DNA of 64,000 bases from Amphiscolops sp. MND2022 (GCA_964187785.1 OZ076409.1:13704001-13768000); one strand, 5' to 3'. Positions 10,301 to 34,300 are shown, counted from the stretch's first letter. Numbers and translations are program-made. Notes: generated by a model from the letters alone, not told the origin.

Positions 10301-13300
10301 GAGTGGTAATTATCCATTCGTATGCTGACGTCATTGAGATGAAGCGAGCGAATGTTCGTAATTGTGCTTTCGTTGCCCCGAGTTATTGAGATGAAGCGAA
10401 TGAGTGTTAATTATTCGTTCGTTGAGAGCTTCGCCTGCATTCAAATGCGAATGCGAAACTTCGTCTACGCTTAGTAGTTATATTGTGACGTCATGATGCA
10501 TGACATCAAGAATTTTATATTTGCTAAACTTCGTGACCTAATAGCATGACAGATGTCATTCTAATCAGAAGTTAATACTTCATTATCAAAATGCTAATAT
10601 TTCATTATAAATGTAATCCCTCCAAACTTCATCCTATAATGATTTGAAGTCTATTTAATCTTATTATTGATTGATGTACTAACTAATTCTGTATAATCAG
10701 AGTAACTCGAATGTTGTAATCAACCAGTACTCTCATCTTGAAGAGAAAGTAAATCTGAGATCTCAGTCTAAGTAGTACTCCTCAGTTCAGTGAAAGTATA
10801 GCTAGCTAGACGGTATTCTGTTAAGACTTAGAAAAGAACTTCTTATGTACTTCTTAAATGAAATAACATCTAACATAAGACAAGTCTTAAACAGCTCAAT
10901 TGGTGCGACCACGAAAATTCTCTTCTCTCTTCCTCTCATACCTCAACTTCATTCTTCTTGTACACAATTTCTTAACTTTCTCATACGCTATTTCTTCGTT
11001 CGACACACTGTTTCACCTCCTCTTTCTATTGTATATCGATACTAACTTCTCTCATGGTTCTGACTACGTCTTTTCGTAATTCCTGTCAGTTACAAATTTT
11101 CGGTTCTGACTGCGTACTATCGTAATTCCTGTCAGCAAAATTTTTGGTTCTGACTACGTTCACACGTAATTCCTGTCAGTTAATTTTTCGTTCCAACCAC
11201 TACAAAGTGAATTCGTGTTGGTTTCCTTTTCATTTCCGTTCCAACCGCAGACGTGCGATTCGTGTTGGTTTTTCAATCGTGCTATCCGGCGATTCCTGCT
11301 AGTTAAATACTCTGGTTCTAGCCGCTTGGATCAACTCCTCTCAGAGTTGGCACATAACATAACATTTTCTCTCATCTCATAAAATAACATCTTTCCTCCT
11401 TTCAACTCTTACAATACTCATAACTATCTTTTTCTCTAACTCTCTAATACACTATAAATTTTCTCCTTTCTTAAACACTGCCGCGGATCAATAATACACA
11501 TTTCACCTTTAGAACTTTTAATAGTACACATTTCACTTCTAGAACTCTATAATTAACCTTCAGTACAAAATTTCAGTATAACCTTTTAGTACAACATTTC
11601 AGTATAACACATACCAAAATACAATCCAAAAATTTCATATAATTATAGTACATTATTTCTTTTGTTAATGCCTTCAGCTGATAAAATAGTACACTTCTTA
11701 ATTCTTCTTTGGTTCTCTCTTGGTATCCTTGCTGGTATTGCACTTTTCTTTGACAGATTTTTAGTCCCTTTTATACCAAGATTATAATATTTTACATTAA
11801 TATTTTACAATAGAATAACAAAATATTAACCCAAACTTTATATAACTCTTAAGAATTATTACCCTATATAACTCTTAAACCACTCTTATTTTCTATGATA
11901 CAAGCTATAATACTTCCTCTTTTTGGCATTTTTGGAATATATTACACAATTTGTACCTTATTATCACTGACATCCAATAAATTCCTGCTCTTACCTTTAA
12001 CCCTAATCACTGTTTTCCTACAAATAGCATTCGTAGATATAATACTTCCATACCCCATCAATTTTAACACAAAACACATTTTCACCCAATATCTATTTCC
12101 TATAGTAAACAATTTCTACTATGATTTGTAACGAAATTACATAATGCTTCCAAATCCATTCACATTTTCTTCACAACAAAGATCTTTTCGCTCAACCACC
12201 CATGATATAACACCCTTTTTACATAACCTAATCTATCAGTACACCAATCCACTTCCATTTGAAACAGAAACACATTCTATTCATACAATATCATTGCTTC
12301 GAGAACACTTAGATGCATACCTTTATTACTTTAGATACAAAACATTGGAAATCACACAATCACAACAACCCTTCCAAGTCATTTTCAATCCAATACCAGG
12401 TATTAACAATGGAACCTTCTATAGAACTATCCATCCTCGAAACTTAATTTTACCAATTCAAAATATTTTCACAAGCTACATTAACCAACTTATTGAACAT
12501 AATGAAAATTTAGACACACCTATATACAGACCATCTCTCCTCGAAGAATTGAAAGAAAAGGTAGACCTTTTTGAAGTCCCAGATTTAGATACAAAAATAA
12601 TACGCCACAACAACCCTCACTACTGGCTTCAACAAGATATTTTACAAGTAACAACTTTTCAATACAAATTCTTCAAAAATATTACACTAGATGATGATAC
12701 AATACCACAAATTAAAGTCTTCTCTCACTTTCTTTTGAAATTCTTCAGATTTAATTATCAACTGATATGGGAACCAAAAGACCAGAATGCATATATACAT
12801 TTTCCTCAAATACTAAATAAAACTGAACTTTTACCATTTATCATTCAAAACAACTCCAAACATCCTTATTACAAAAACTTCACTACACTCCATCCATCTC
12901 ACATTGAAGCTATAGAACTTAATACCGATTTTCTTATAGAACAATCTGAAACTTCAGATAGCCGACCTTATACAAACTTATTTCAAAACAACACAATGGA
13001 AGAAGAAAACCAATCTTCTGAAATTTCTGATAATCCACACTATACGCACTCAACACAAGACCACAACATTACCGATGAAAACGTAATTCAACATCAACCA
13101 ACAACTCCAAGACATACATCCCAAATAACACATGATCCAACAGAATCAGTACAAGACACAATTACAAACCCACCTAATACTTCTAGTACAACTACGGACT
13201 CCAATGCTCTTCAAGTACCTACTCGAAATATCACAGAAACTAACACTCATCTTTTCAATCAAGAAAACCCTTCTACTATCTCTATGACTAATGACACTGA

Positions 13301-16300
13301 AACACAATCATCTTCAATACACCAGACAATAACACGAAACTATGATCCACCACCTCCCCCATCTATTCACTCCACTCATAGTACCCCACACAACTCACCA
13401 CAACAAGGATCATCTAACACCTTTTTTACTCAACAACCTCCCTTAAACGAAACCCAATTTCAAACAACCACTCCCCCAATACAATCACCTCAAACAATAC
13501 CATATATTCCTGCTCAAATACCCGTACAATACAATAATCCTCCTACATTAACTATTAACACTCTACATACTAACCCTATATCAAACGTTACAACTTCTAG
13601 TACATTATCAAGACCTCCTTTACCATTAATTCAGAATAACCCACTTATGTACAACCTCACTAGTACCAATATACAATCACAACTTAACACAAATAATACA
13701 CAAACAAACTTAAATGTATTACACTCTAATACCCATCATCAAACTCATCTTCCTTCAACTATTACACATCCACCTCCACATATACAATCAGTTCCAATAC
13801 AACCTCAAGTCAATGTCCTAAATATCCCACCTACTTCTTCCAACCCTTCCACTTTACACACTATACCTCCAAATACAATACCTCCATCTACCATTAATAC
13901 ACCTACCTATATTAATTCTGCTACATCAATTTCAGAACCCATTAAACCTTTTGATGGTTTAGACCATAATTATACACCAGAGGAATACTTACAGCATATT
14001 GAGGCCCGCGTTACATTTTCGCTAGGCTTACAACCTCATACTACTCATGAATACAAATTTTGGCATGCTCGCCGAATGGCTTTTATACAATGCTCACTCA
14101 CTGGAACTGCCCTCAGTTGGTATATCCGATTAAATGACACTTACAAACAAGATTGGCACGCTTTTGTACAAGCTTTCAAAAAACAATTTTCATCACAAAA
14201 GAACGCTTATTATGCACAAGTTGAAGCTCTTAGTTTAACAAAGAAGGACAACGAAACTGTTCGTCATTTTGCCCTTAGAGTTCAACAACTTGTTGAAAAA
14301 GGATGGTGCAATGAGAACGCATCAACTATAAATCTCAAATGCAATGAAATTTTTACAAAAGGACTACCCAAAAATCTTAAAGATTTTGCAAACAAACGAC
14401 AAGTTAAACATACTTCTACTGTTTTAGAACCTTCGATACCTTTTCATACACTTGTAAAACTTGTAGATGCTGAAGACATCGCAAATGACAAGATACGTAC
14501 ACATGATCTCACTCTTGAAGTTAATAACCTTACAAAACAACTACAATCTCAATCCTTAAATCAACAACAAACTGACCAAATTATGTTTACACAACCACGA
14601 GACCCAAATAATAAAACAAAACCCGCTTACAAAAAATACTGCTCCTACTGTCATAGAACAAATCACTCTATCTCTGCCTGTTTCAAAAAACAAAGAGATG
14701 ATGAAGACAAACGCGATAGATATGCAAGATCAAAATCCCCTCAAAAATCCTTCGTACAATACTTTCGTTCATCCTCCAATGATAGAACACAAAGATATGA
14801 CACAAGACCAAACGAATATCACACTAGATACCGTAGTCGAAGTACATCTCGTCATGAGTATCAAAAACCTAACAGACAACGATCTATTTCTAGAACTCGC
14901 TATAACTACGATAGAACAACTACTCCTCCACACTATACCAGATCTCGCTATGACAACTACCAACGTGATTCACGTTCCCATCGTTCACCATATAGATCTT
15001 CCTATAGATCACCCCACAAACGTGATTCACACTCCCGTTATAGATCACGATCATACTCAAGAGACAACAACTTTTCACGCTATACTTCTTCTTATAGACC
15101 ACCATCTAGACCTAGGGATTCTCGATATTCTCGGTCCCGCTCACACTCTCAGACACGAAACAAAATAAATACCATACAACAACAAAACTCTAACGATCCA
15201 ATCAATTTCGAAATCCACATGTATCATCCAACCGAAATGGCAAATGCTTTAACACCTACAAGCTGGTTCTACTCTTTATATACACATACACCTTCAAACC
15301 AAATTCATCGTGACTTCCCTTCAAGACTTGAAATTTCCTTCCTCCTTGATAGTGGTGCGTCAATTTCTGTCTTAAACCACCCTACCTATATTACTATTGC
15401 AAAGCTTCTTAATATTAAACAGACTTCTTCTCATAATTCATCTAAAACACTTACCGTTGCAAACCAAACAGAAGTCCCTATTTTACACTATATTACCATT
15501 ACCTTAAATACAACTATTGATGATAATTCACGTCAATTTACAATTCCATTTGCAGTAGCTGATATAAAATACAACATTCTTGGAACACCCTTCTTTGAAG
15601 AAAACATTCAAAATATCAATATACAAGATTTTACATTACATTTCAAAAACCACTCAAGAGTATACCCAAACTATGCTAAATTCACTTCTTTACTATCCAA
15701 AGACTATCCATACTTTTCTTACATTTACAGAATAAACTCCAAAACACAAATCCGTTTAAAACCAAATACTTCCAAAATTGCACATTTTCCTATAAATAAC
15801 TATTATAACCTCCATTTCTCAACAACACCACAAAAACAATTTTTTCCCACAATTCCACACACTTACTTTTCCTCCAAATTTCGTACAACCTTCAATTTTA
15901 TTGAAGTCTTCACAGACGACAAACCAGACACTTGTGCTACAATTATACAAAACTCTACAAATCACATTGCAACACTACCTACAGGACACATTGGTTATAT
16001 TGAAGTTCCAATAACAAATGAAAAACCCAAATATTATCAAGTCAATGACATTAACACACTTATTCATAATGTTACTCATACTTACCATCCTGAAATTACA
16101 GAAATTATTCCACCCACTAATTATTCAACAACTACAGAACAACAACCAATATCTCCAACACAATTTTCATTAAATCAAGTATTAATGACTGACGCTGATT
16201 CATTGCCACATTCACCTTCTCTCTATAACGTACAACCTACTTCTCATTCCTCAAAACCACGAGTGTTTCCTTCATTACCATATTCACCAGAGAATCTAAA

Positions 16301-19300
16301 ATTCATAAATAAATTCAACTTTCAATTCTCTGACCTTACAGACACCGAGTATATCACACTTTGCAACTTATTACTCAAACACAAAACCTGTTATGCTACT
16401 CATAAAAACGATGTTGGTAAAATTGCTACTCCTTTCCGCATTCGTCTTAAACCCAATGCTCAACTACTTACACAACGTCCATCTAAAGTACCAATTCATT
16501 ACCGTGACAAACTTAATACTCTTCTCAAAGATTTAGAAAAACACAACATTATAAAACAAATTGGTTCCTCACCTCAAGACAAACCTGTTTATGGTACAAC
16601 GTATTTAAATCCTCTTATCATTATACCAAAAGGTGACTCCATAAAATGTGTACTTGATGCACGCCACCTCAATTCCAATACAGAACAATCCGACGAATCT
16701 TGGCCTATTGAACCTCTTGCTCCACAACTTGCACGAGCAAATAAAAAGTACAAATCAGCCATAGATCTCATGTATGCATATGCACACACACCTCTTGACG
16801 AAGAAACAATTAAACTCACAAGTTTCTCGTCAGGTGACAAACTCTTCGCCTTCATACGAGGCTTCTATGGTCTTAAAGGCCTTCCAAATTTTTTTACCAA
16901 ACAAATGTCCTCATTCTTCAAAACACTTATTGAACAAGGTTTTGCCCTTGTATACATCGATGATATTTTACTCCTTTCAAACTCTAAAGAACACATGTTT
17001 CAACTCATTGAACAACTACATAATATTAGCACGAAAAACAATCTTAAACTTGCTCCAGAAAAATCCTTTTTCATGCTCCTCAAAGTCAAGTTTTTAGGAC
17101 ATGAAATAGGTTATAACACTATCAAACCAATACACTCCAAAATTTCAGCTATACACAAAATCCCTTCACCAACAGGCAAAGTTGCTCTTATGAGTTTCAT
17201 AGGTGCACTCAATTTTTACACAAAATTTATAGACAAACTCCATATTAATCTTAAACCATTTTATGATTTATTACACGAAAATACCCCTTGGAAATGGACT
17301 GATGACCATGAACGTTTATTTCAAACCTTAAAAAACTCTCTCACTGCAGATACAGAACTTACAATTCCCAATACAAAACATCCTTTCTTTATTACCGTAG
17401 ATGCTTCCCTTATTGGATTAGGTGCTGTCCTTTTCCAATTAAATGACCACAATCAAATGAAAGTAATATCCTACAATTCTCGAATATTAAACCCTCAAGA
17501 ACAAAAACTCTCTACTCTTGAACGCGAACTTCTTGGTATAGTACACGCCCTTCAAATCTATGAATTTATTATAATTGGATCACCACATCCTATCCATGTT
17601 TTTACAGATCACAAACCTCTTTTACATTGTTTCACAAAAAAAGGAAATCTTAGTCCTCGCTTTTATAGAGCACAAATGCAACTTACAAAATTTTCAAAAC
17701 TCAAAATAATACATACTCCAGGAAAAAATCTTTCTGTTGCCGACCTACTTAGTCGATCTTTTACAAAAGAAGAATTGCAAATAAATCAACTCAAACACAA
17801 ACACCTTCCACCCCAGATTGACTTCACAATACTCCAAAACAACAAACTTCAACCTGTACATTACTTAATTAAACACGAAGAAGTTTTACCACATCAAAAA
17901 CATGACTCTCACCCTATTCTTGCTGATTATGGTACAGACCAATTTTCATTACGTATTAATGACAAAGGAAACGACATTATAGTTAAACCTTTAAACTCAT
18001 TTTCTTTCAATGCCATCACTCCTTTTCAAACAAAATTTAAGGCTCCTGCCAAAAAACATAACAAATCCCTTCACCAACAATCTCTTCTTCTCAATGATAC
18101 TGACGTTACTAGTGATGATGACGATCACATATATACTCGTATTCCAAAAACCAATTCCTCTTTCACACATGACACCAAATTAAAAGAACAAGAAACATTC
18201 TCTACCATAACCAAACCAAAACCTACCATCACACCAAAATCTAACTCCGAAACTACTTCTGCTATAGATGTACAGACAAATTCCACTTCTATGACACATT
18301 CTTCTCAATTAGTACCTTTTTATGACCCTTCCTTCTTCAAATATAAACTATATTTTCAAGGTTTCTTTCTTCCAGATGATTACTCCTTAGACCTCAAAAC
18401 ACTTCAAGTACAACAATCTCAAGACCCAGTTCTTCGAACTGTCCATTCTTGGATAATTAATAATGAAAAACCTGAATTTCTCACACCTCTTATTACTGGT
18501 AATCTCTTTTTACACGCTTATTACAAAAGATTCACACAACTTTTCATTGATACCACTACAAACCTTATAAGTCTTCACACAACACACCCACTTCCTCCTG
18601 AAACACACCCTATTTCTATCCCACACATTCTACACGATACTATCAGAATTTGTCTTCCTTTTAGAATGTTTCAAACAGTATTTAACAAGTTACATGACCA
18701 TTCTCACACCGGTATCAAAATCACGTATAACACTTTTTCTCAATATTATTACATCCCGTATCTTGAAAAATGGCTTTCTATTTTCATACATGACTGTCTC
18801 GAATGTCAGAAAAATAAACACTTTAACATGAAAATTCAAACTGCTCCTACACAATCATTTTCAGAACACGCTCCTTTCTTCAATTACAGAATCTCCATGG
18901 ATACAAAAGGACCTATAAACCCTCCTTCACAACACAAATCTTACATTCATGCCATTGTTGACACTTTCAGCCACTTTGTCGTTACAGTACCAATTAAATC
19001 CAATAACGCAAAAACTGCAGTCAAAACTTTATTACACCACTGGATTACAAAATATGGTCCTCCTATTTACCTTGTCACTGATCGAGGTACCGAATATGTT
19101 AATCAAGACATAGCTCACCTTTGTACACTTATGGGTATTAGACACTCCCCCCGAACAGCATACTCTCCTTGGGCCAATGGCCTTGTTGAAGTACAAAATC
19201 GAAATCTTGGCACACATCTTCGTATGTTTCTCCATAACACTCCTGAAAATTGGGCTTTCCAAGTACATATGTATGCCTATGCCCACAATTCACAACCGAT

Positions 19301-22300
19301 TTCAGAACTTAATGTTTCCCCTTACGAAATAGTTTTCCACACAAGACCCCGAATTCCACTTACATTTGATCTTAACCTCAATCGTAACACATCCAAAACT
19401 TGTATCTCACAATATTGTTCACAACTTCCAGAACACTCACACTACGATAAAACTGATTTAAACCCCTTCTTCTACAAAACACTATCCAAACCTATTCCAC
19501 AATGGTTTCTTGCTGTCGAAACTGCAATGCTTCAAATTTACTCAACTGTTTACTACTATACTCTCAAAAAACTCAATTCTCACGCTTATATTACCAAAAC
19601 CTACCATGAAGGTAAACCCCTTCCTATTGGTACTTTTGTTCTCAAACGTCATTTTGCACACGTTCACTTTTCAGACAAACTTAAACCCCTTCGAATTGGT
19701 CCATACAAAATTCTTGACCGATTATCCGATGTTACATATGAACTTCTAGCACAAGATGGTTCTACATTACATGTTCACCGAAATCATATAATCCCTTATT
19801 ATCCAAAAGAACCACTACTATACCCACACCTTCGTAATTTTATGCGTTTCTCTGATTCAATTAAATTGGACATTCCAAAACCCATTCAATATGCTAATAG
19901 CGACTCATCACCTTTTAATTCCGATGAATCCCTTTCTGACGATACATCAGTTTCGGATAATGACCAACTCTTATCACCAAACAACATTTTTCCACAAACT
20001 CCATCAAATACTAATCCATCATCAACAATTAACCTACCTTTTCAATCAATTCCTCAAACCCCTAGTACTAATCACTCCCGTGACAGAACTCGTCACCAAT
20101 CTCAAAATCAATCTCCATCACCTTCTTTTACAAATAATAGAGATACAAAAACTCATTATAACTTGAGACAACAACCAAAAATGGATTATCGTATTTTTAT
20201 ACCACCATCGAAATTGTAAAACATCCATTCACTTTCAAATCACCACTCCAATCAGTCACATAAAATTTGCAAATTTCTGATCAAACTGGCCTACCAATCT
20301 GGATTCTTCATCTGAAACATCTCCCTCTGCTCCTAATATACCTTCTCCATCTGAATCCTCTGTTTCAAACACAACTACAAATAGTAATGTAACACCAATA
20401 ACTCCTTCAAAACGACCAAGATCTCATATTATAACTACCTCTCCAACACCATCTTCTCATACACATTCAACTCATATTAGTAGACCACCTATTGCTGAAA
20501 TACCTTATACTCCTCGCTCTCGATCTCAACCGTCATTTGTCCACATACCACACCCTCATACTGTAGCACATCTTGTAAATTACAAACAACCAACTGCTAT
20601 TAAAACAGCCCGTGTTTCACCTAACCTTCCATCTAAACTAGATATTGTACCACTATCTGATATTGAATACACACCTCTACCTACATTACACTTACCATCT
20701 GAATCTTCAAACCCATCTCAACTTTACCCTCCTTTAAAACCACTTAGACATCCTTCCACTTCTCTTTCTAACTTAATAGACTCTCCTTCAGAATATCTAC
20801 CACAAACTGATACTTCAGGTTCTGATATAGTACCACATCATAGATATAATCTCAGACCTCTTCCCAATAGACGCCTGAGTGCAACCGACTCATCCACTCT
20901 TAATTTTTCAGCACTTTCTAGCAACTCAGCATTACGCCTTCTTAGACAACACGCTCAACCTTTATCTTCTGATACAGCACACTCTTCTGATTTTGTTCCA
21001 CAATCCTATCTCACTTCTGGATTAGACACAGCTTCATTACTTTCGTCTGACGTACAAACTGCATACTTATCTGGCAACCTCTTCTCTGAAGTCTTAGTAC
21101 CTACACCTGTTGCTCCTCACGTACGAATACCTGAATACTACACATATGATCAATCAAGACCGCCTACTCCTAATTTCGCAGACTACCCTTTACGTGTAGA
21201 CGGTGTTACTATATATGACCCACAAAACGATCCCCGTTTCCCTCTTTTAGCAGAACGATTTATTACCACAAATAACTCTCTCTCACATAAAAGAAAAGAA
21301 ACTGAATTAAAACGACTTCAAACTCCAAATCTAGAAATAAAATTTGAAGTCAAAGTTAAGTTTCAAGGTCTTAATCCACATCCCATATTTCACGTTGCAA
21401 AAATTGAACACAAAACCACTCCTGCCCCTTTTGAGGTAATATTCGTCGATTTCAACCGTGATCCTGAATTAAATGACCTAGCTTATGGCAAAATTGTTTT
21501 CTACAACCCCTTCTCTGGTCTCAAATATACAACTTCCTTTTAAAACACATGTTCTACTTATTATAACTCATGTTTTTCTCTTTTCTATCAACCCTTATAT
21601 TACATCTTCCATTCCTATCAAACCAACAGATGATGACAAATATCTTCCATCTGATGACCCAAATATAACAAATCTCATGGTTTCGCATTATGACTGTGCA
21701 AAACAACATAATCTTCGTCAATTTAACCTTCTCAATGTCAAACAATGTACCGAAGCTCCTTCTAACATACAACATGCAAACATTCAAGCTCGAGTTTATG
21801 TTAGAGCAAAAGCTAAACGTATTCGCGCTTTCAAATGTGAAGCATATGCAAAAAAAAGAACGAAAAATCTGCTTCCAAGGTAATGTTAAATACAGACGTG
21901 TTGACAGAACTGTTTGGAATCACAATACAATGCCACTACCTATCACACTTGATCCTCTTGAATGTAAAAATATTATTCGACACCTTAATGGAACTGATAA
22001 TAAAATATTGAACAATCTTAACTATAACAAAACTTTTACATTACTTGAAGACCACTACTTTCAAGAACAATTAGAACGATTTCAAACTCCTTTCACTGTT
22101 TACCAATTCAACAAAATGTATACAGGTACATTTACCTATATGCCCGCTGACAAAACTTGGATATATGATCCACTTCGAAACCCTTACCATAACTGTCCTG
22201 CTCATCACCAATTTGAAGTCAACTTAGTAAGTTGGCGTCTCGCTATATCTGAAATTGAACTAACATACGATGATACACAAAATGTTATGATCATTGATGG

Positions 22301-25300
22301 TCATACTCTTCCATGTTACTTTGCTGATGGTTTTTGCAAACCTACCACAAAAACTCCTTTCACACTTGTATGGTTTAGTGATGACTTTTGTCTTATCTTT
22401 ACTTTACAAGACTTTATTGGACGCATGACCAAAATCGATGATCGATACTGGATAGAAACTGATTCTTTCGTACACTCTGCTACTCCGAAGAAATCACCTT
22501 CCTTTGATGGTATCAAAGGTACTTCTTATCCGCACGTCCGTGCTCCTCATACTGAAACTCCACATAACCCAAGTCTTTCTCGTTTTGAAATTTTTCCTAC
22601 CGCTAACACCTTTTGTGGAAAACCTGAACCTCTATATTCTACTCAATATTCTGACCTTTTTGTTACTTACACAGAAGGATTTAACATGCATACAGGACAA
22701 CCAAACCCCACTTCTATAATTAATGAATACATCTCTGGTAAAATTGTATTAGACAAATCAAATTCTAATAATAAATATATCTTTCCTGCATTGAACGTTT
22801 CTAACAATTTCGCTACCATAGATTACGATGCACATATAAACACTAAAATTGACTACACGATTAACCATGTATTTCGCTCAATGACTGTTCAAGAACTTAA
22901 TACCCTTCATACAGTATGTGAATTAGAACGCAACCAACTTCTTACAATACTTGCAATGTCGGTACAAAATCCTCAACTTGCTGGCTTTCTTCTAACAGGA
23001 AATCGCAGTAATTTCCTTTACGTTGAAGGATCTACTGCTTGGTTATATGACTGCCCACACTTTCTTTCACCGTTATACATTGCTGATCGTTGTTTCGATC
23101 GAATTCCTATTCATTTCAAGGATACTCTTATGTACGTTGACCCAATTACAAGACAAACATATGACTATGCCACTCCTATTACATGTGACAATAACCCGAA
23201 TAACATTATTGAACTCGATCCTGATTCTGATGACCAAGATTTTTATATTCTTGGACCCGAACCTATAAAACGAAAACCTCCACTTATGTTTACTCCCTCT
23301 CAAATTAAAACTACAATACGCCCTAATACTTTTACAGCTCAAGATGCTGGTATATACTCAAATGCAGAACTAAATCAATTTTGGAATCGAATTCTATTTT
23401 CAAAACACTCTGATACTACACTTCAACTCTTAGGAAAAGCTCTTAGCTATTCCTTTATTTCTTCTAATACACCTGATTATGATGCAAATGAACCACATGG
23501 TAACCCATATAATACACTTCGGATTGGACTCCATGATAGATTAATTAACCTAACTCCCCTTTTTACTCCTACATGGTTCTCTGATGCCTTCATCGCTTTA
23601 TTTGGATATCCATGTTACATTTTGACACAATGTGGAATTTATTTTTCCACATATCTATTCATACAAACAATGTTAACTCTCATTGTTAAATTATACAAAA
23701 CTATTTCCATAAAGTACAATCTTAAACAAAATATTACACTTTTGAACTCTATTGCCCATGGTTTTCTTAATATTCTTACGGCAGACATGCTCCATGACCT
23801 AAAAAATGCTCGTTCAAAATCAACTTCTAAAAGTTCACAACAAATGTCAAACATTACTGACAACCCATTAGATGAATCTTCCTATAATCTAAATGATCCA
23901 AATGGTACTACTCCAAATCCAACTGGTATTACTTCACCACCACCTTTTTATACAAAACGTCCAAATCGGATTTCCAAAATGACTCGTTTTAAATTCCTTC
24001 CAAAACGAAAACAATATAATGTTCATTCCAAATCTAATCCTCAATCATCTTTACCACATTATTCTTCAGTTACCACAAATCCAAATGATTACACATCACC
24101 TGTCAATGACGAGATCGACACTCCTGTCCGCATATATTCAAAAACAAATTACTCCTTCACTCCGCCATCTTTTCAAACTAATCATTCTGACTTTTTCACT
24201 CCTCCGACATAGCTGCCACCTACTACTCTTCGATACAATTTCCTCACATAAACAATCTCTCAAAAATTTCATCTACCTTCTTCCAAAATAGAACAAAAAA
24301 TTGAAATAAAATTGCATTTGAACCAACCCGTCAATATTAAAATCGACATTTCGACTCCAAAAAACCTTTGATAAATCTACACGTTAGTGTTTTGTTTGAT
24401 ATAATACTTTCAGAAAACATTTCTTCAAATGACTCAAGCACAACTAGATTTCCATAATATGACTCCTCAAGTCACGCAAGAACAAATCGATCTCCAAAAC
24501 CAACTTGAAATACATACTGCTGATCTTATAACAAAACCTCTTTCAAATGACTCGCCTATTCTCTTTCTTGATACCAAAGAAACCACTGATGATCCCATTC
24601 AAGATCAAATGGAACACCAAAATATTCCAGAACAACAAAATATATCTACAATACCTACAAAAAATAAAACACCTTCAGACCCTGATCAATCTCCTGATAC
24701 TCCTCCGCCAACAAAAAAGAAATATGAAATTATGAAAGACCCTGCTTTTCTTTCATCACCCATTTATCCACCTATAATACCTACAAAACCGCAACTCTCT
24801 ACAACTCGTGATGACTATCTAGTACCAATTCTCTCTAATCATCGTTTCTCATTCAAATCACAACTAACTTCTCTCTACATGCATCCTACGGACTATACGT
24901 TCAAACTTTATGATAAAAATCAAGATTTCTTCACATCTATTGCCTCCAAAATCATGGCTCCCTACCACTATTGGCTTCATAATGGAATCAAAATATTTTC
25001 TCTACAATTCAATTTTCTTCGCCCATCAATATATGATCTCAAAACAGATGAAAATGATCCATCTTTTCTATCTACAGCACAAAAAGCTACCCATCATTTA
25101 ACGTATACTCGCTTTCTTCAGCATTCAAAACCTCAAAACTATATTTTTGCGAACTACAAATATACTTCTCCTTTCACAATGACAAATTTATACACGATAG
25201 ATCACTCGAAGATAACTGGCTATCTTCGCAACTATGACCCAATCAAACAATACTTTTGTCTGCTACCTCATAATGATACGTCTCGTCCTCTTATCGTACC

Positions 25301-28300
25301 TCAAGAGTATCTCATCCATTTTGATGACTTTCTGTTGCCTTGCAACATTCCAACCCAAATTGTCAAGCCTTTGACAGTTATCAAACACCTTGTTTCTACG
25401 CCGCTAGATGATAAAGATACGTCACATTATACAGCCTTGTATAAACAGTCCTACTCTTATAATGAACTTTTGTTTATAGCTGCAAAAGTCATTTCTTACA
25501 TGGTTCGCGCTGAACAAAGTCTCGAAATTCAAACTGAACACCAACGCCAAAATAAAACTCGTAAAACTCCTCCACCATCTCCTATAAAACAAACTACCAG
25601 CGAAAAACTCGCCACTATCCTCAATAATCGTACTCTGAAAAATCTAACCCAAATGTTGGATCCATATAAACGAAACTCTTCAGATTCTCCAATCACTACT
25701 CTTAACCATCTCATTCATTGCCATAACCGAACCTCACAACTCCTTCAAACTCTAGATCTCGATTCGCAACGTATCACACAATCCTCTCAAGCAATTCAAT
25801 CGGCGCTTGAATCTATGAATACTCTTTTTAATACTCTTAATATCAACTAAATCATCTCTCAGGTAATACAAATTTCTTTAATTTTCCCACAATATTGGAC
25901 ATTTTTGGACACCTTTTTCTGTTGTACACTTTCATTCCCAAATACAGGTAACATTCTTCATTTATTTTCACACATTTTTAGTACAAAAACTCTCCTTTTA
26001 TTATTTTACTTGGTCTCTCTACTATGGCATTCTTTAAAAATCTCTTTTGCAAAAACCTAACTACTATCCATAATATAGCACCAACGTATATTACAAATTC
26101 TAGCACCCAATTATAGAACAAAGAAATTTTTGATCAGTATCTCCAAAACTCAGACTCCTTTTGTTTTAGAAACTTCTCTTCTTCCTCCTGTTGGACCTCG
26201 TTCCACTTCCGCAACATCCAAATTTTATCAGGATTTAACTGTTCATTCTTATCCAAATGGCTCCGACCCAGCAATCTGAAATAAAAAAACTTGTTCAGTC
26301 CACAGAATCTAAGGTCCACAGTCTTAAGGCTGCAATTTTTCACACGATGGCATACAAAATGTCACTGGAGATAAACAAAGGCGATATTACTCTCCCCACC
26401 CGCCGCTCCTTTCTCAAGGTCTTATACAACGTTTGCCAAATTCGCAAGAAGGATATAACTTTCGAACAATATTACCGTATCCATGTCCATGGCCCGAAAA
26501 TTGCCATTTGTGAAATAACTTCCGATACAGTATTTGTCTTGAATTCTGCCTTCACTGCGAAGGACAACTATTTTCGCGTCGCCATCGATGAGGCCATCGA
26601 TGCATTCAATGCCGTTCTTTTGGACTTTGGGTACACCCAACAACTCCAAAAATACGACCCAACAACCCATCAAGTCCACCCGCAGCCCAAACACCCGTTC
26701 TGGCCAAAACCTCATACGTCAAACAAATCAACTTAATCAACTCTTACTCACCTCCACTTCTTCAAACTCCTGCTTCTCGATGACTTCACTTTCTCCAATT
26801 GCTGCTTCTTGATGACTTCACTTTCTCCAATTGCTGCTTCTCGATGACTTCACTTTCTCCAATTGCTGCTCCTCGATGACTTCACCTTCTCCAATTGCTG
26901 CTTCTCGATGACTTCACTTCCTCCATGTTCTAGATGACTTCACTTCCTCCAATTGCTACTTCTACATGACTCCACTTTTCTCAACTGCTTCTTCTTGAAG
27001 ACTTCCTTTTCAAACTTGTATTCGTATTTAATGAATTTTAACGAATCATTAACCTATTTACGTCTATTTAACCTCTCTATACTCAACCATGATTCTAATC
27101 ATTTAATAATAATCATTGTATAGTTCCTATTACTTTAGTTTAGTTACAATATTGGATGTAAAATCTATAATCACGTATAATCTTCTAATATTCATTAGTG
27201 CTTAATGTGTAAAATACAACAATTCATCCTATATTACTGAACCTCATCATATATTCTCCAATATTTAACACAATATATTCTTGAGTTCTTTCCTTTTTTA
27301 CAGTACAAGATCTCTTCTTATTGTACGACTGTTTTACTCTAAGAATTTGAACTGAAAATTTGAAGTTTGATTCCTTTTTTTGATCGTTCAATATGTCTCT
27401 AACTTTGAATGAAAAATGAACTCAACCTTTGCAACTTTTAGACTTCTTCACACTTTGTTCACAACCCGCCAATGTTTGTTCACACCTCATTGACAACTTC
27501 AACTATCGTTCTTCAATACCAAAAAGTTTTCATTTTGACTGCTCTTTTGAAGAACACCGAGAAAATTTTTAACAAAGCCGATGGAGCTTTTCACAAACAA
27601 TATATAAAATAAGTTGTCAATCAATAACTCGAACTCCAAATGTCACATCCATAGATTGACAGAACGTTGCACCAATGTGAACCGTCATACGATTAAGAAG
27701 TTCTAACCGTCCTAGGTTGTTCTCACTCCTTAAGTATGGTACTCTTATATCACATGAAACACCCAACACCTATAATACAAAAAACATTCAACACCTCTAA
27801 TGTAAAGTACAAAACCCAAAACCCTCAGCACACTTGGATATATTTTTCAAAACCCGGTCGATTGTGACGTCATGATGCATGACATCAAGAATTTTATATT
27901 TGCTAAACTTCGTGACCTAATAGCATGACAGATGTCATTCTAATCAGAAGTTAATACTTCATTATCAAAATGCTAATATTTCATTATAAATGTAATCCCT
28001 CCAAACTTCATCCTATAATGATTTGAAGTCTATTTAATCTTATTATTGATTGATGTACTAACTAATTCTGTATAATCAGAGTAACTCGAATGTTGTAATC
28101 AACCAGTACTCTCATCTTGAAGAGAAAGTAAATCTGAGATCTCAGTCTAAGTAGTACTCCTCAGTTCAGTGAAAGTATAGCTAGCTAGACGGTATTCTGT
28201 TAAGACTTAGAAAAGAACTTCTTATGTACTTCTTAAATGAAATAACATCTAACGTAAGACAAGTCTTAAACAGCTCAATATTTTCTTTAGTCCGAGAAGA

Positions 28301-31300
28301 ATTAAAGGCGGTGTAAACTTGTACAGTGATTACATGTAATTGTGCGCTAAATAATGATTGAACAGGAGTTTATTGATATTCCAGAAATGACTTTATTATT
28401 GAAAATAAAAAAGGAGTGTAGCGAACATTCTACGTCTGATTGGAAAATTGTTTTGAATAACCGGCTTTTTACCATTGTCAACTTCCATAGGGGATAAGTT
28501 CTCTCAGTTTGAAAAATTGTTGATTATTTCCTGCATTTTAGCTTTTCAAATGTCTTTAACTCTCAAAATGGCTTATTTCAGTATACTTCCATAGGGGATA
28601 AGTTCTTTCGGTTTGAAAAATTGTTGATTATGTCCAGCATTTTAGTTTTTTATTTGCCTTAGTCTCAAAATGGCTTACTTTAAGTGTACTTCCATAGGGA
28701 ATAAGTTCTGTCGGTTTGAAAAATTGTTGATTATTTCCAGCATTTTAACTTTTCAATTGTCTTTAACTCTCAAAATGGCTTACTTTAGTGTACTTCCATA
28801 GGGGATAAGTTCTGTTGGTTTGAAAAATTGTTGATTATGTCCAGCATTTTGGTTTTTTATTTTTCTTTAACTCTCAAAATGGCTTACTTCAGTATACTTC
28901 CATAGGGGATAAGTTCTTTCGGTTTGAAAAATTGATTATGTCCAGCATTTTAGTTTTTTATTTGCCTTAGTCTCAAAATGGCTTACTTTAAGTGTACTTC
29001 CATAGGGAATAAGTTCTGTCGGTTTGAAAAATTGTTGATTATGTCCAACATTTTAGTTTTTTATTTGTCTTTAACTCTCAAAATCGTTTACTTTAGTGTA
29101 CTTCTATATGGAATAAGTTCTCTCGGTTTGAAAAATTGTTGATTATTTCCAGCATTTTAACTTTTCAATTGTCTTTAACTTTCAAAATGGCTTACTTTAG
29201 TGTACTTCCATAGGGGATAAGTTCTGTTGGTTTGAAAAATTGTTGATTATGTCCAGCATTTTGGTTTTTTATTTTTCTTTAATTCTCAAAATGACTCACT
29301 TTAGTGTAATTCCAAAGGTGATAAGTTCTGTCGTTTTTAAAAATTGTTGAATATTTCCAGCATTTTAACTTTTCAATTGTCTTTACCTCTCAAAATGGCT
29401 TACTTTAGTGCACTTCCATAGGGGATAAGTTCTCTCGGTTTGAAAAATTGTTGAATATGTCAAGCATTTTAGGTTTTTTTATTTGTCTTTAACTCTCAAA
29501 ATGGCTTACTTTAGTGTACTTCCATAGTGGATAAGTTCTCTCGGTTTGAAAAATTGGTAATTATTTCCTGCATTCTAGCTTTTCAAATGTCTTTAACTCT
29601 CAAAATGGCTTACTTCAGTATACTTCCATAGGGGATAAGTTCTGTCGGTTTGAAAAATTGGTGATTATGTCCAGCATTTTGGTTTTTTATTTTTCTTTAA
29701 CTCTCAAAATGACTCACTTTAGTGTAATTCCATAGGTGATAAGTTCTGTCGTTTCTAAAAATTGTTGAATATTTCCAGCATTTTAACTTTTCAATTGTCT
29801 TTAACTCTCAAAATGGCTTACTTTAGCGTACTTCCATAGAGGATAAATTCTCTCGGTTTGAAAAATTGTTGATTATTTCTAGCATTTTAACTTTTCAAAA
29901 GTCTTTAACTCAAAATGGCTTACTTCAGTAAACTTCCATAGGGCATAAGTTCTGTCGGTTTGAAAAATTGTTGTTTGGTCCAGCATTTTAGTTTTTTATT
30001 TGTCTTTAACTCAAAATGGCTTACTTTAGTGTACTTCTATATGGAATAAGTTCTGTCGGTTAAAAAATTGTTGATTATGTCAAGCATTTTAGGTTTTTAT
30101 TTGTCTTAACTCAAAATGGCTTACTTTAGTGTACTTCCACGGGAGATAAGTTCTCTCGGTTTGAAAAATTGTTGATTATTTTCAGCATTTTAACTTTTCA
30201 AATGTCTTTAACTCTCAAAATGGCTCATTTTATTGTACTTCCATAGGGGATGAGTTCTGTCGGTTTGAAAAATTGTTGATTATGTCCAGCAATTTAACTT
30301 TTCAAATGTCTTTTACTCTCAAAATGGTTTACTTCAGTATTCTTCCATAGGGGATAAGTCCTCTCGGTTTGAAAATTTGTTGATTATTTCCAGCATTTTA
30401 ACTTTTCAAATGTCTTTAACTCTCAAAATGGCTTATTTTAGTGTATTTACATAGGGGATAAGTTCTGTCGGTTTGAAAAATTGTTGATTATGTCCAGCAA
30501 TTTAACTTTTCAAATGTCTTCTACTCTCAAAATGGCTTACTTTAGTGTACTTCCATAGGGGATAAGTTCTTTCGGTTTGAAAAATTGTTGATTATTTCCA
30601 GCATTTTAACTTTTCAAATGTCTTTAACTCTCAAAATGGCCTATTTTAGTGTACTTCCATGGGGGATAAGTTCTGTCGGTTTGAAAAATTGTTGAATATG
30701 TCCAGCAATTTAACTTTTCAAATGTCTTTAACTCTCAAAATGGCTTACTTCAGTATACTTCCATAGGGGATAAGTTCTGTTGGTTTCAAAAATTGTTGAT
30801 TAGGTCCAGCATGTTAGTTTTTTTGGTTTTAACTCTCAAAATGGCTTACTTTAGTGTACTTCCATAGGGGATAAGTTCTCTCGGTTTGAAAAATTGATTA
30901 TTTCCAGCATTTTAACTTTTCAAATGTCTTTAACTCTCAAAATCGCTTACTTTAGTGTACTTCCATAGGGGATAAGTTCTCTCGGTTTGAAAAATTGTTG
31001 AATATGTCAAGCATTTCAGCTTTTCAAATGTCTTTAACTCAAAATGGTTTACTTCAGTATACTTCAATAGGGGATAAGTCCTCTCGGTTTGAAAATTTGT
31101 TGATTATTTCCAGCATTTTAACTTTTCAAATGTCTTTAACTCTCAAAATGGCTTATTTTAGTGTATTTACATAGGGGGTAAGTTCTGTCGGTTTGAAAAA
31201 TTGTTGATTATGTCCAGCAATTTAACTTTTCAAATGTCTTCTACTCTCAAAATGGCTTACTTTAGTGTACTTTCATAGGGGATAAGTTCTCTCGGTTTGA

Positions 31301-34300
31301 AAAATTGTTGATTATTTCCAGCATTTTAACTTTTCAAATGTCTTTAACTCTCAAAATGGCCTATTTTAGTGTACTTCCATGGGGGATAAGTTCTGTCGGT
31401 TTGAAAAATTGTTGAATATGTCCAGCAATTTAACTTTTCAAATGTCTTTAACTCTCAAAATGGCTTACTTCAGTATACTTCCATAGGGGATAAGTTCTGT
31501 TGGTTTCAAAAATTGTTGATTAGGTCCAGCGTTTTAGTTTTTTGGTTTTAACTCTCAAAATGGCTTACTTTAGTGTACTTCCATAGGGGATAAGTTCTCT
31601 CGGTTTGAAAAATTGATTATTTCCAGCATTTTAACTTTTCAAATGTCTTTAACTCTCAAAATCGCTTACTTTAGTGTACTTCCATAGGGGATAAGTTCTC
31701 TCGGTTTGAAAAATTGTTGAATATGTCAAGCATTTCAGCTTTTCAAATGTCTTTAACTCAAAATGGTTTACTTCAGTATACTTCCATAGGGGATAAGCTC
31801 TGTCGGTTTGAAAAATTGTTGAATATGTCCAGCATTTTGGTTTTTTGTTTTTAACTCTCAAAATGACTCACTTTAGTGTACTTCCATAGGTGATAAGTTC
31901 TGTCGTTTCTAAAAATTGTTGATTATTTCCAGCATTTCAACTTTTCAATTGTCTTTAACTCTCAGAATGGCTTACTTTAGTGTACTTCCATAGGGGATAA
32001 GTTCTGTCGGTTTGAAAAATAATTGATTATGTCCAGCATTTTAGTTTTTATTTGTTTTTAACTCAAAATGGCTTACTTTAGTGTACTTCCATGGGGGATA
32101 AGTTCTGAAAAATTGATTATATCCAGCATTTTAGTATTTTAAATGTCTAACTCTCCAAAGGTATTCGTTTCGAGTAATTTTCTAAGGGACCTGCTATGTT
32201 CGATTGAAAAAATATCGCTTATTTGCGGCATTTTGGTGAATAGTTTGTCTTTGTCTTATAAAATGGTTTTGTTTAGTATTTTTCAGTTTTTATTGATTAT
32301 TCTTTTGGTTCCTTGTGCAAATTTTGTCTTCCTCTGATTTGCTATTTGGTAATTTCACTACTCCCATGATGTAGACACAATTTACTGGGTAAGACGGGCC
32401 TAACCCAGCCTGCACAGTACGAGTGTCTACTGGGTTCTTAGTATTGGTTGACCTCTCTTGAAGCAGGTAGACCGTTACAGTTCTACTCTTCAAGAATCGG
32501 GTTGAGGTTAACCCTAGACTCCAGTAGACACTCAAAATCTCTTGCACAAGTACTGATTCGATTCGATTCCAATCTTCACTTTTCTTCCCTCTTCGATTTA
32601 AATACCTCTACACTGACTATATGGCGGTATCACATGTAAATTGTACAATTTCTCTACGTGGTATGGAATTACTGCAATATTGTTTTAATCAATTGTTCTT
32701 GAAATTAACTAGCTTGCTCCGTCATTATTTTTTACTTTTGCTGACTTCTCTTTTGTCTTGGAAATAGTTTTTCTGGCTAATGTTTTTTTGCTTCTGAAAG
32801 GGTATAAAAGCAGAAATAATCGTGTGCCCCGGAGGGGCCTATTTTTCACATCGCTTTTTCGCTGAAAAACTTTTTCATCAAACTATTAAATGTTTGAATT
32901 CAAGAATTTTGAAGAAGTTTTAAAATAATAACTTGATTCATTTTTTTCAACAAAATTGAATTTTTCATACTATGTGGGTTTTACCAGGGTAAAATAGAAA
33001 TTTCAGGAAACTCGGAGGGAATTTTGAATTTAAACAGTTTATTAGTTGGCTCTAATTTGAATCACTAATAAAATCGCTGAAAAATTATGCGCGGCCGCTA
33101 AATCGCTAATTGGCAGTGTCAACATTGGTGCAAAATTGGACTAAGTCCGCCTTTTCGTAAAATTCAAAAATTAGAAATTTTTTCGAGACATCTGCTTGGA
33201 ATTGGAAGATTTACTTCCGGCCATTTTTATAAATGATTTTATCCCGTTAAGTTATGTGTTAACAGAAGACGAACTTTTGAAATTTTTTGTAGTTGCAGTA
33301 GCATATGTGAGCTCCGAAGGGGTCGACGTTCATGGCCATGTGTGAAAGCGAAGTACTGATCATTCTTGCCCGAATGATTTTCAATCATTGGAAGTTTGTG
33401 TTTGATTCGAAATTTTGATTCAACACTAGCCAATTGGTGCTAACCAGTAACTGTTTGACTTAATTTTTCCAATGACCAATGAGTGTGATGATTACTGATG
33501 ACTTGGAAGTTTAATTCCAGGGACCAAGTTGATGAGAATGAATTGAGACACAGGACCACTGCGACTGGCACCGAATTCACCCCCAATGTAAGCGGGGGAG
33601 GGGGTCAGTCGGGATTCAAGTGGTATCCCAACGCCATCAAGCCACAACATTCTACCATCGGGAGCTCCATGAAACCTCCTGAGGTATGACAATGCCACTG
33701 GATGATAGTCATTCACTGTAATATATTTTGTCAATTTTTTGGTTTTTGAAGTTCCCAAACTTTTGAGACATTCACCGTCGAAATGTACTTTTTTTAGTCG
33801 GCGCTTCATGAAGTGAAACGCGACTGTAATAGTGACTTTTTTCAATCCCCGCGAACTGACCAAAGTAGTTCAAGCTCTACAAAATTTTAAGGGGGCCAAA
33901 TTGTACCATTTGGCCAATAGAACTGAACTTTTAATGTCTCCAAAGGGTCCATGCAATTCTTTGATATTTTGCAACAGAATGGATGTTGAAAAAGCCTAAA
34001 GGCCCACCTTTTTTTTACATTTTTGGGCATGAGACTTTCAAAATTCTCTTTCCGTTTTTTTTTAAAAGTTTTTAATGTCTCTAATAAAACTCGCCGAAAA
34101 TTCTCTGGCGGAAAATTTGTCGCATATACAGAAAATCTCAGCCAAATATTGTGCCAACTTTGTGATCGTACTATGTTATGAAGTTATAAAGTATTACACT
34201 GTAAACTATAGAAGTGCAACATTTCAAGCTATTATATAACTAAAAAAGGTTTCGCATGCCTTGTGAACGTACATTCAGTTAAATTTTTTAATTTAAAAAA

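Follow-up and report, generated by a model that had tools for sequence, protein, structure and literature searches.

The window, i.e. the whole stretch of 64,000 nucleotides from Amphiscolops sp. MND2022 (GCA_964187785.1, OZ076409.1:13704001-13768000) that was analysed, contains a 17.8-kb Ty3/gypsy-type LTR element with the layout LTR, gag-pol, ORF X, env, ORF Y, LTR. The features are listed below by their positions in the window.

10480..10483, + strand: target-site duplication ATAT (4 bp, found by flank alignment), 5' copy; the 3' copy lies at 28278-28281, and the two flank the TG...CA LTRs
10484..10898, + strand: 5' LTR, 415 bp, TG...CA, direct repeat with 27863-28277
10901..10920, + strand: primer-binding-site-like stretch of 20 nt with TGG start, two bases past the 5' LTR
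12144..20219, + strand: gag-pol, a single open frame (ORF 12132-20219, 2695 aa; first Met at 12144)
20281..21543, + strand: ORF X, between pol and env, 420 aa from one stop to the next, without a Met or a Pfam family
21485..21849, + strand: N-terminal part of env in frame 2, with start codon, signal-peptide-like segment (21485-21613) and the first four cysteines
21850..21857, + strand: run of eight A, env frame switch, break of the window copy
21858..24212, + strand: remainder of env in frame 3 to the stop, covering the ectodomain beyond the break, the transmembrane segment and the tail
22824..22961, + strand: long central helix (Env residues 447-492; 404-449 of the ectodomain model), of the domain III type seen in class III fusogens
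23589..23696, + strand: transmembrane segment, residues 702-737, from hydropathy
23697..24209, + strand: cytoplasmic tail of 171 aa; PPFY (PPxY) motif at 23940-23951
24429..25850, + strand: ORF Y, 473 aa from the first Met (ORF 24405-25850), after env, no known family
26752..27015, + strand: tandem repeats of 32 bp, 3' untranslated region of the element
27863..28277, + strand: 3' LTR, direct repeat with 10484-10898

The two LTRs are identical in 414 of 415 bases, the sole mismatch being at 10875. A tRNA 3'-end pattern derived from the primer-binding site is absent from the host genome. The gag-pol frame encodes gag, zinc knuckle, protease, RT, RNase H and integrase domains, the pol part in the gypsy-type order PR-RT-RH-IN, with Pfam matches to Retrotrans_gag, RVT_1, RT_RNaseH_2, RT_RNaseH, Integrase_H2C2, rve and SH3_Tf2-1. 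The gypsy class of pol was thus assigned by Pfam families, whereas Chary & Hayashi used Gypsy Database profiles. An assignment to the BEL/Pao (Anakin) elements was rejected, since no BEL/Pao family was among the Pfam matches at E ≤ 1e-2. Nor does the element correspond to an exogenous virus of the Jingchuvirales: env is part of chromosomal DNA, flanked by pol (RT/IN) and an LTR, and no RdRp family was found in the ORFs of the element.

The element belongs to a young, many-copy Ty3/gypsy-type endogenous retrovirus family. In the host genome of 1.07 Gb, identity is 99-100% for all 75 env copies that were scored. The same genome contains two sister families, referred to as B and C, with at least 50 copies each.

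The env gene has its start codon at 21485 and its stop at 24210-24212, exactly the borders given in the earlier note, which had also spoken of a frame-corrected protein. Such a correction is indeed needed: the first frame ends at a stop at 21881-21883, the second is open from 21669 to 24210-24212, and the switch falls within the eight-A run at 21850-21857. The window copy is therefore unable to make the full Env, as the frame breaks near codon 122; this frameshift may be either a real mutation or a homopolymer assembly error. Cysteines 71, 88, 118 and 129, numbered after an unbroken copy, lie around the break, and in ten of twelve copies compared the frame continues through it.

The unbroken Env comprises 908 aa. 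Its hydropathy profile shows a hydrophobic N-terminal segment (residues 17-43, approximately), a transmembrane segment and the tail, so that the transmembrane region and cytoplasmic tail noticed before are both present. Between the two peaks lie 14 cysteines and six N-x-S/T sites, and the topology is that of a type I protein, with a signal-like segment, a large ectodomain and one C-terminal transmembrane segment. An R-x-K/R-R furin motif does not occur anywhere in the 908 residues. All motifs that had been named are found in the translation (SHYDC, CYFADGFC, FCGKPEPLYSTQYSDLF, NTKIDY, CELE, CFDRIP, DPITR and AGIY/CGIY), although two spacings had been given slightly wrongly and really read C...DG.C and CG....L..T....LF.

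The assignment of Env to the chuvirus G / herpes gB class III family is supported by sequence and by the predicted fold. The Pfam family PF24664 (Monjiviricetes_fusion, curated gathering cut-off 27 bits) matches an unbroken natural env copy with E 8.8e-23 (80.6 bits) and the C-terminal frame of the window itself with E 1.2e-19 (70.2 bits), while the N-terminal frame gives a weak match to profile positions 25-79. The best stretch covers Env residues 440-657 (window 22803-23456), and 31 of 32 aligned Env homologues match the same family; a cluster look-up of ten distant homologues yielded no names. At E ≤ 1e-3, 2189 library proteins match Env. In the 32-sequence alignment, most rows of which are only 23-35% identical, each of the 14 ectodomain cysteines is kept in 23/24 to 30/30 non-gapped homologues, W296 in LVWFSDDF is identical in 29/29, and most near-invariant columns lie around the long central helix. 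Judged from these sequences, the motif and cysteine pattern is far beyond chance. In the ESM Atlas the neighbours of Env are clusters of PF24664, of gB and of rhabdovirus G (0.93-0.96). The Pfam family Glycoprotein_B does not match Env, PDB sequence searches with the single protein and with the Env profile returned nothing relevant, and a scan of viral contigs for Env relatives yielded eleven pattern matches, none of which is a relative.

The Env ectodomain was modelled by AlphaFold as a monomer, with moderate confidence (pLDDT 72.2, pTM 0.51). Class III fusogens (gB, rhabdovirus G and gp64 type) have an elongated fold of several domains, namely PH-like, beta-rich fusion and crown domains, with a long central helix, and the following matches place the model in this class. 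YFADGF and LVWFSDDF are candidate internal fusion-loop segments. Foldseek returned 177 matches at E ≤ 1e-3 in BFVD, where glycoproteins of chu-like, xinmo-like and qin-like viruses are at the top (E 2.8e-25 to 1e-21), the chu-like ones leading (E 2.8e-25 to 4e-24) and the first gB following at rank 33. In the PDB there were 95 matches at E ≤ 1e-3, and the best 32 of the 95 are all herpesvirus gB (best E 1.3e-11). The earlier note had proposed this very check, and its outcome agrees with the expectation: the best matches are chu-like glycoproteins and gB, with no F-type or class I protein among the matches listed. In VIA-align, where a best Z of 7-8 is possible without true kinship, MHV68 gB reached Z 9.0 (404 residues aligned, rmsd 12.8) and HSV-1 gB Z 8.3 (387 aligned); eight chains reached Z ≥ 5, each of them a gB or a rhabdovirus G, and a coronavirus S2 chain stands at rank 20 with Z 3.6. 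The global TM-scores of the model to its matches are low (0.27-0.45) and the rmsd is high (12-17 Å), so that the fold match rests on domains and topology and not on one rigid superposition. F proteins do not occur among the listed matches of VIA-align, BFVD and PDB, an absence that by itself excludes no family. An F-type (class I) envelope was nevertheless rejected, since the furin motif is missing and the top fold matches are of class III. The initial suggestion of a class III fusogen rather than an F protein is thus borne out by the sequence profile, the language-model neighbours and the predicted fold.

Taken together, we consider it probable (roughly 85%) that 21485-24212 is the env gene of the 17.8-kb Ty3/gypsy-type retroelement and encodes a type I class III glycoprotein predicted to mediate membrane fusion and likely the entry into neighbouring cells. 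Env, which was folded here as a monomer, would presumably form trimers and expose internal fusion loops in domain I, a candidate for these being LVWFSDDF with its invariant W296. Priming by furin would probably not be required. By analogy with the Env of Drosophila gypsy, it may serve the spread from cell to cell, namely from soma to germline.

One could also assume that the family spreads inside cells only, like an ordinary gypsy element, and carries an env that no longer works. The frameshift of the window copy and the shortened frames in ten of the 75 scored copies would fit such a decay. However, the other 65 are fully open, in frames of 909 aa or more, and env is free of stops in 49/50 copies of family C and 31/50 of family B. 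The ectodomain has a dN/dS of 0.053 between two families, an approximate value because dS (1.37) is near saturation, whereas the tail evolves faster (0.30). These rates indicate that the Env ectodomain is under strong purifying selection, and relatives that are only 23-35% identical still keep all 14 cysteines, which makes a decaying env very improbable. Still harder to uphold is the idea of a viral glycoprotein domesticated by the host, or of a solo endogenous viral element next to retroelement debris. Solo insertions of chuvirus-type glycoproteins are known from arthropod genomes, according to the available parts of PMC7642597 and PMC10084718, but the present env is enclosed, after pol and before the 3' LTR, in a single element that has near-identical LTRs (414/415) and a target-site duplication. 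Moreover, the gag-pol-X-env-Y layout is repeated in a second family, and copies with 99-100% identity are dispersed in dozens. Both the solo and the domesticated glycoprotein were therefore rejected.

A functional env of a retroelement might still have been acquired recently, if a gypsy element of the host took it from an exogenous Jingchuvirales-like RNA virus, so that env would have no long history with pol. The chu-like virus glycoproteins as best structural neighbours and the origin of PF24664, which was built on Monjiviricetes viruses, are in line with this, and a similar event has been proposed for mosquito BEL/Pao elements (Anakin) in the part of PMC7642597 available to us. However, env and pol diverge in parallel in three comparisons: the ectodomain is 90% and PR-RT-RH 88% identical to family C, env is 54-59% and pol 58% identical to family B, and at an outside metagenome locus (L026) the values are 33% for env and 32-36% for pol. 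L026, the only one of six loci from a metagenome scan with a smaller Env alignment that has a readable context, carries gag, PR-RT-RH, IN and env of its own and is again of the gypsy type. Since the divergence is parallel and L026 is also gypsy, a recent capture from a chuvirus is unsupported. The identity of Env to viral glycoproteins in the structural BFVD alignments amounts to only 12-15%, and the scan of viral contigs gave no relative. We therefore regard recent capture as improbable, and long co-inheritance of env and pol is favoured by the sequence comparisons. Shared ancestry of Env with Jingchuvirales-like glycoproteins is supported; of the two origins offered in the earlier note, this one stands, while a capture of the fusogen from such viruses, if it happened, was probably not recent.

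The env gene of this fusogen-bearing retroelement is accompanied by two further ORFs. The layout gag-pol-X-env-Y recurs in family B, the counterparts there sharing 37% (ORF X) and 36% (ORF Y) identity, and dN/dS of ORF X is 0.13 in comparison with family C. ORF X has no start codon and would need splicing or fusion to be made. ORF Y has 546 homologues, none with a Pfam domain; PDB sequence searches with the ORF Y profile and with ORF X returned nothing relevant, the ESM Atlas gave no usable match for ORF Y, and its AlphaFold model (pLDDT 33.8) is too poor for use. By tblastn, neither ORF X nor ORF Y was matched in the six outside metagenome loci, and the 3' region of the window contains nothing that corresponds to the third ORF of family B (318 aa).

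The sense strand of the element contains only 10% G, and a literature search found nothing specific on a G-poor strand bias in LTR elements. This composition, the size of the element and the two conserved unnamed ORFs around env are out of the ordinary.

Herpes gB depends on gH/gL and a receptor-binding protein. By analogy, it is conceivable, if rather doubtful, that the element represents a "complex" invertebrate retrovirus lineage overlooked for its size, an 18-kb, still-spreading gypsy-type provirus in which the class III Env and the products of ORF X and ORF Y act together. ORF X and ORF Y might then encode entry cofactors or regulators, comparable to the partners of gB, and the 10% G might possibly result from editing or restriction pressure by the host.

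The combination of gypsy with a chuvirus/gB-type env is already published, and the element described here adds another family, very young and abundant, with at least 65 open env copies of 99-100% identity and two sister families. Such families are good test material for the role of class III Env in cell-to-cell or soma-to-germline transfer outside Drosophila, and they bear on the question whether envelopes are inherited together with pol or captured from RNA viruses. The main survey searched within limits that both the size of this element and its pol-env gap surpass, so that comparably large elements carrying additional genes may be under-counted.

In the following comparison, statements on published retroelements refer to those parts of the papers that were available. 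Gypsy elements with gB/chuvirus-type env occur across animals (Chary & Hayashi, eLife 2026, PMC13524379; preprint 2023). The present element resembles these HSV/gB-type ENV "errantiviruses" in having a class III env behind gag and pol of the Ty3/gypsy type, LTRs and many near-identical intact copies. Of the features that define this group, it has the Ty3/gypsy POL with full RT and integrase, the GAG, POL and ENV ORFs, the LTRs and the near-identical copies, ENV being interrupted once in the window. It differs in the two conserved extra ORFs around env and in its dimensions, the span from gag to env being about 12.1 kb and the gap between pol and env about 1.27 kb, whereas the survey was limited to 10 kb and 1000 nt, respectively. 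Two Env peptides and the primer-binding-site string were not found in seven supplementary files of that paper, nor was the 12-nt reverse complement of the primer-binding site in its supplementary file 2; long cells are incomplete in these files, and both absences are weak evidence.

Anakin comprises mosquito BEL/Pao elements with a glycoprotein derived from Chuviridae (Dezordi et al. 2020, PMC7642597). It shares with the present family the organization as an LTR retroelement whose pol is followed by a class III glycoprotein of the chuvirus type, the young copies and the similar LTRs. However, pol is of the gypsy type here (RT_RNaseH_2, Integrase_H2C2, SH3_Tf2-1) and not BEL/Pao, and nothing points to a recent capture. 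In the Drosophila errantiviruses gypsy, ZAM and Idefix, Env is a class I fusogen of the F type that bears a furin site and a fusion peptide (PMC13524379). They agree with the present element in the gag-pol-env layout, the 4-bp target duplication and the proposed soma-to-germline role of Env, but differ from it in the type of fusogen, as the Env studied here has a predicted class III fold and no furin motif. What the earlier note had stated as background about the BEL/Pao elements, about some gypsy elements with a chuvirus-type glycoprotein and about the F protein of Drosophila errantiviruses agrees with these papers.

With the glycoproteins of Jingchuvirales and other Monjiviricetes, which are its best structural neighbours, Env has PF24664, the cysteines and the central helix in common, and its ectodomain is of similar size. 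In contrast to these, which are encoded in negative-strand RNA genomes together with L and N, it is DNA-encoded between an RT/integrase gene and an LTR; it is only 12-15% identical to them and has a long tail of 171 aa with a PPxY motif. With herpesvirus gB (PDB 2gum, 9uv4, 5cxf), the Env model shares the five-domain class III fold, about 390-400 of its 657 residues being matched. The similarity includes the crown domain IV, where 155/175 residues of PRV gB domain IV are aligned with an rmsd of 3.8. Sequence identity to gB is about 10%, without a match to Pfam Glycoprotein_B, and partners of the gH/gL or receptor-binding type are not recognisable in the element.

The env protein is predicted to be a class III fusogen rather than a protein of the baculovirus F type, as the earlier note had proposed from its cysteine spacing and motifs. 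The query for the family and fold work was L003, a natural open env copy from the same genome, which was used unchanged. It matched PF24664 (Monjiviricetes_fusion) with an E-value of 8.8e-23 and 80.6 bits (cut-off 27) and no other Pfam family, Glycoprotein_B included. An exhaustive HMMER search returned 2189 library proteins at E ≤ 1e-3, of which 258 reach E ≤ 1e-30, and 31 of the 32 homologues that were taken from this search and aligned also match PF24664. The nearest neighbours of env in the ESM Atlas are PF24664 clusters (0.95-0.96), followed by clusters of gB and rhabdovirus G (0.93-0.95), while sequence searches of the PDB with env found nothing.

The AlphaFold2 model of the ectodomain (pLDDT 72.2, pTM 0.51) has a 46-residue central helix flanked on both sides by beta-rich domains, with another long helix close to the membrane. 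The comparison of such a model by Foldseek, which had been suggested as a check, pointed in the same direction. Among predicted viral structures there were 177 matches at E ≤ 1e-3, the best of them being glycoproteins of chu-like viruses and their allies (E 2.8e-25 to 4e-24; Soybean thrips chu-like virus 4, Tacheng tick virus 4, dermapteran chu-related virus 142 and a xinmovirus). These are followed by rhabdo-like glycoproteins, and the first herpesvirus gB appears at rank 33 (E 1.1e-11). Against the PDB, herpesvirus gB accounts for all of the best 32 of 95 matches at E ≤ 1e-3 (top 1.3e-11). VIA-align, which is independent of Foldseek and was run on 48,161 representative chains, is led by gB of MHV68, HSV-1 and HCMV with Z-scores of 9.0, 8.3, 7.6 and 6.9, of which values of 7-8 are by themselves middling according to the method's own caution. 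Eight chains reach Z ≥ 5, each of them a gB or a rhabdovirus G, and Gp of Thogoto and Bourbon virus comes next (Z 4.1-4.5). Since 384-404 residues align at an rmsd of about 12 and TM-scores are low (0.27-0.45), it is the domains and their topology that match, and not a single rigid conformation. No F-type protein is among the structural matches listed. Taken together with the PF24664 profile match, these modelled fold similarities make the class III assignment secure.

The env gene belongs to a complete LTR retroelement in the window, the long features of which are:

10484-10898, + strand, 5' LTR (415 bp, TG start, CA end)
12132-20219, + strand, gag-pol, one ORF (2695 aa)
20281-21543, + strand, ORF X, accessory ORF between pol and env (420 aa)
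21485-24212, + strand, env, in two frames in the window copy
24405-25850, + strand, ORF Y, accessory ORF after env (481 aa)
27863-28277, + strand, 3' LTR (415 bp, TG start, CA end)

The two LTRs differ by a single base and are bordered on both sides by a 4-bp ATAT duplication, and a primer-binding-like stretch starting with TGG follows the 5' LTR. The interior has four long ORFs in the standard code. The Pfam matches of gag-pol (Retrotrans_gag, RVT_1, RT_RNaseH_2, RT_RNaseH, Integrase_H2C2, rve and SH3_Tf2-1) form a gypsy-type set without any BEL/Pao family, which identifies pol, by its predicted domains, as Ty3/gypsy-type. ORF X and ORF Y have no Pfam match. The 3' non-coding part contains a 32-bp tandem repeat of about seven copies (26752-27015) upstream of the 3' LTR, and a long array of a satellite of about 104 bp begins 77 bases past this LTR (28354-32000 and beyond). 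Remains of other retroelements are found at 54070-55631 (- strand; integrase-like and RNase H-like frames) and at 59858-63073 (+ strand; gag, protease and RT-like frames) in a region of higher G+C content (0.43-0.45).

All the env motifs named in the earlier note are found in the translation, although the spacing of two is slightly different. The frame opened by the ATG at 21485 closes at 21883 and the remaining protein lies in the next frame. Since the switch falls within a run of eight A (21850-21857), the window copy is broken once, either by a genuine mutation or through an error in the assembly. The protein starts with a hydrophobic segment, followed by an ectodomain of about 657 residues that contains 14 cysteines and six sequons for N-glycosylation, a single transmembrane segment (residues 702-737) and a tail of 171 residues; the furin motif R-x-K/R-R was not found in it. 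The tail carries a PPFY motif of the PPxY late-domain type (23940-23951). In a nine-row alignment, three further sequences (P0007, P0026 and P0029) read PPFY or PPKY at this site, and 6 of 31 homologues contain a PPxY within their C-terminal 250 residues. A PPHY is found in gag as well, at residue 932 of the gag-pol ORF.

A search of the 1.07-Gb genome with a 581-aa env piece revealed at least 75 copies that are 99-100% identical (75 scored of 10,434 first-look candidates), and none of the 75 matches contains an internal stop. At 65 of them the frame is open over 909 aa or more, at five it measures 847-850 aa, as in the window copy, and at the other five 730-789 aa; 10 of 12 fetched loci have an ATG-to-stop env ORF of 908 or 911 aa. 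There are also two sister families, C (env 86% identical; at least 50 copies, 49 of 50 scored without stop) and B (56% identical; at least 50 copies, 31 of 50 scored without stop). Between the window's family and family C, the ectodomain has a dN of 0.072 and a dS of 1.37 over 655 codons, giving a ratio of 0.053 that is approximate because dS is near saturation, and the tail has a dN/dS of 0.30. At each of the 14 ectodomain cysteines and at W296, nearly every non-gapped row of the 32-sequence alignment keeps the residue.

With regard to origin, the earlier note had proposed that the fusogen was captured from, or shares ancestry with, Jingchuvirales-like viruses. Env and pol diverge in parallel: relative to the window's family, identity is 90% in the ectodomain and 88% in PR-RT-RH for family C, 54-59% in env and 58% in pol for family B, and 33% in env and 32-36% in pol for L026, a distant relative outside this genome. 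The latter is a 13.2-kb contig (13,166 nt) that combines gag, PR-RT-RH and IN with a PF24664 env (E 7e-38); in five other outside loci of 1-4.3 kb, env alone is visible. A scan for relatives of env in viral contigs found none. Given the parallel divergence, the gypsy context in L026 and this lack of a viral-contig relative, the evidence supports common ancestry with Monjiviricetes glycoproteins but not a recent capture, while any ancient transfer may have gone in either direction.

Family B likewise has ORF X and ORF Y on either side of env, at 37% and 36% identity. ORF X is 418-477 aa long across the three families (window, 20281-21543; L023:303-1556; the family B copy L019-L021) and lies in frame +1 relative to pol, with env in frame +1 relative to ORF X, in both families checked. 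It contains no cysteine and, in any of the three families, no methionine, yet a dN/dS of 0.13 over 380 codons indicates purifying selection. It may be translated by way of splicing, fusion or a non-AUG start. For ORF Y, the database contains 546 homologues, of which none carries a Pfam domain, and there is no Atlas or PDB match; its AlphaFold model is unusable (pLDDT 33.8). By tblastn, neither ORF has a match in L026. A class III env may recurrently be followed by additional genes. L026 has two nameless ORFs after env (9651-10757, 368 aa; 11157-12095, 312 aa) without Pfam match. Family B (G000:C3:82488001-82516000) also possesses a third ORF downstream (318 aa), which the window lacks, and its gag and pol occupy two overlapping frames, in contrast to the continuous ORF of the window's family.

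Strand bias is extreme over the entire element (10484-28277): its sense strand has 10% G (A 34, C 25, T 31), falling to 2-5% at third codon positions of gag-pol, ORF X and env, against about 20% in both flanks and 16% in L026. Conceivable causes are an editing pressure exerted by the host or an avoidance of G-rich RNA structure.

Across metazoans, 1512 env-carrying Ty3/gypsy elements with ENV of the F or HSV/gB type have been described; gypsy POL genes, too, adjoin the chuvirus-like glycoprotein known from mosquito BEL/Pao elements, and an ancient co-divergence of env and pol has been argued (Chary & Hayashi, eLife 2026, PMC13524379). Anakin was described by Dezordi et al. 2020 (PMC7642597) and Jingchuvirales-derived glycoproteins in arthropod genomes by Dezordi et al. 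2023 (PMC10084718). In the visible content of the seven supplementary files of PMC13524379, where long cells are shown in part, there is no match to two env peptides or to the PBS string, and in that of supplementary file 2 none to the 12-nt reverse complement of the PBS. In view of the published elements, a gypsy element with a class III env is an already known type, to which the window's element adds one member. It is set slightly apart by this absence and by dimensions beyond the limits stated in that survey, its gag-to-env span being about 12.1 kb (limit 10 kb) and its pol-env gap about 1.27 kb (limit 1000 nt).
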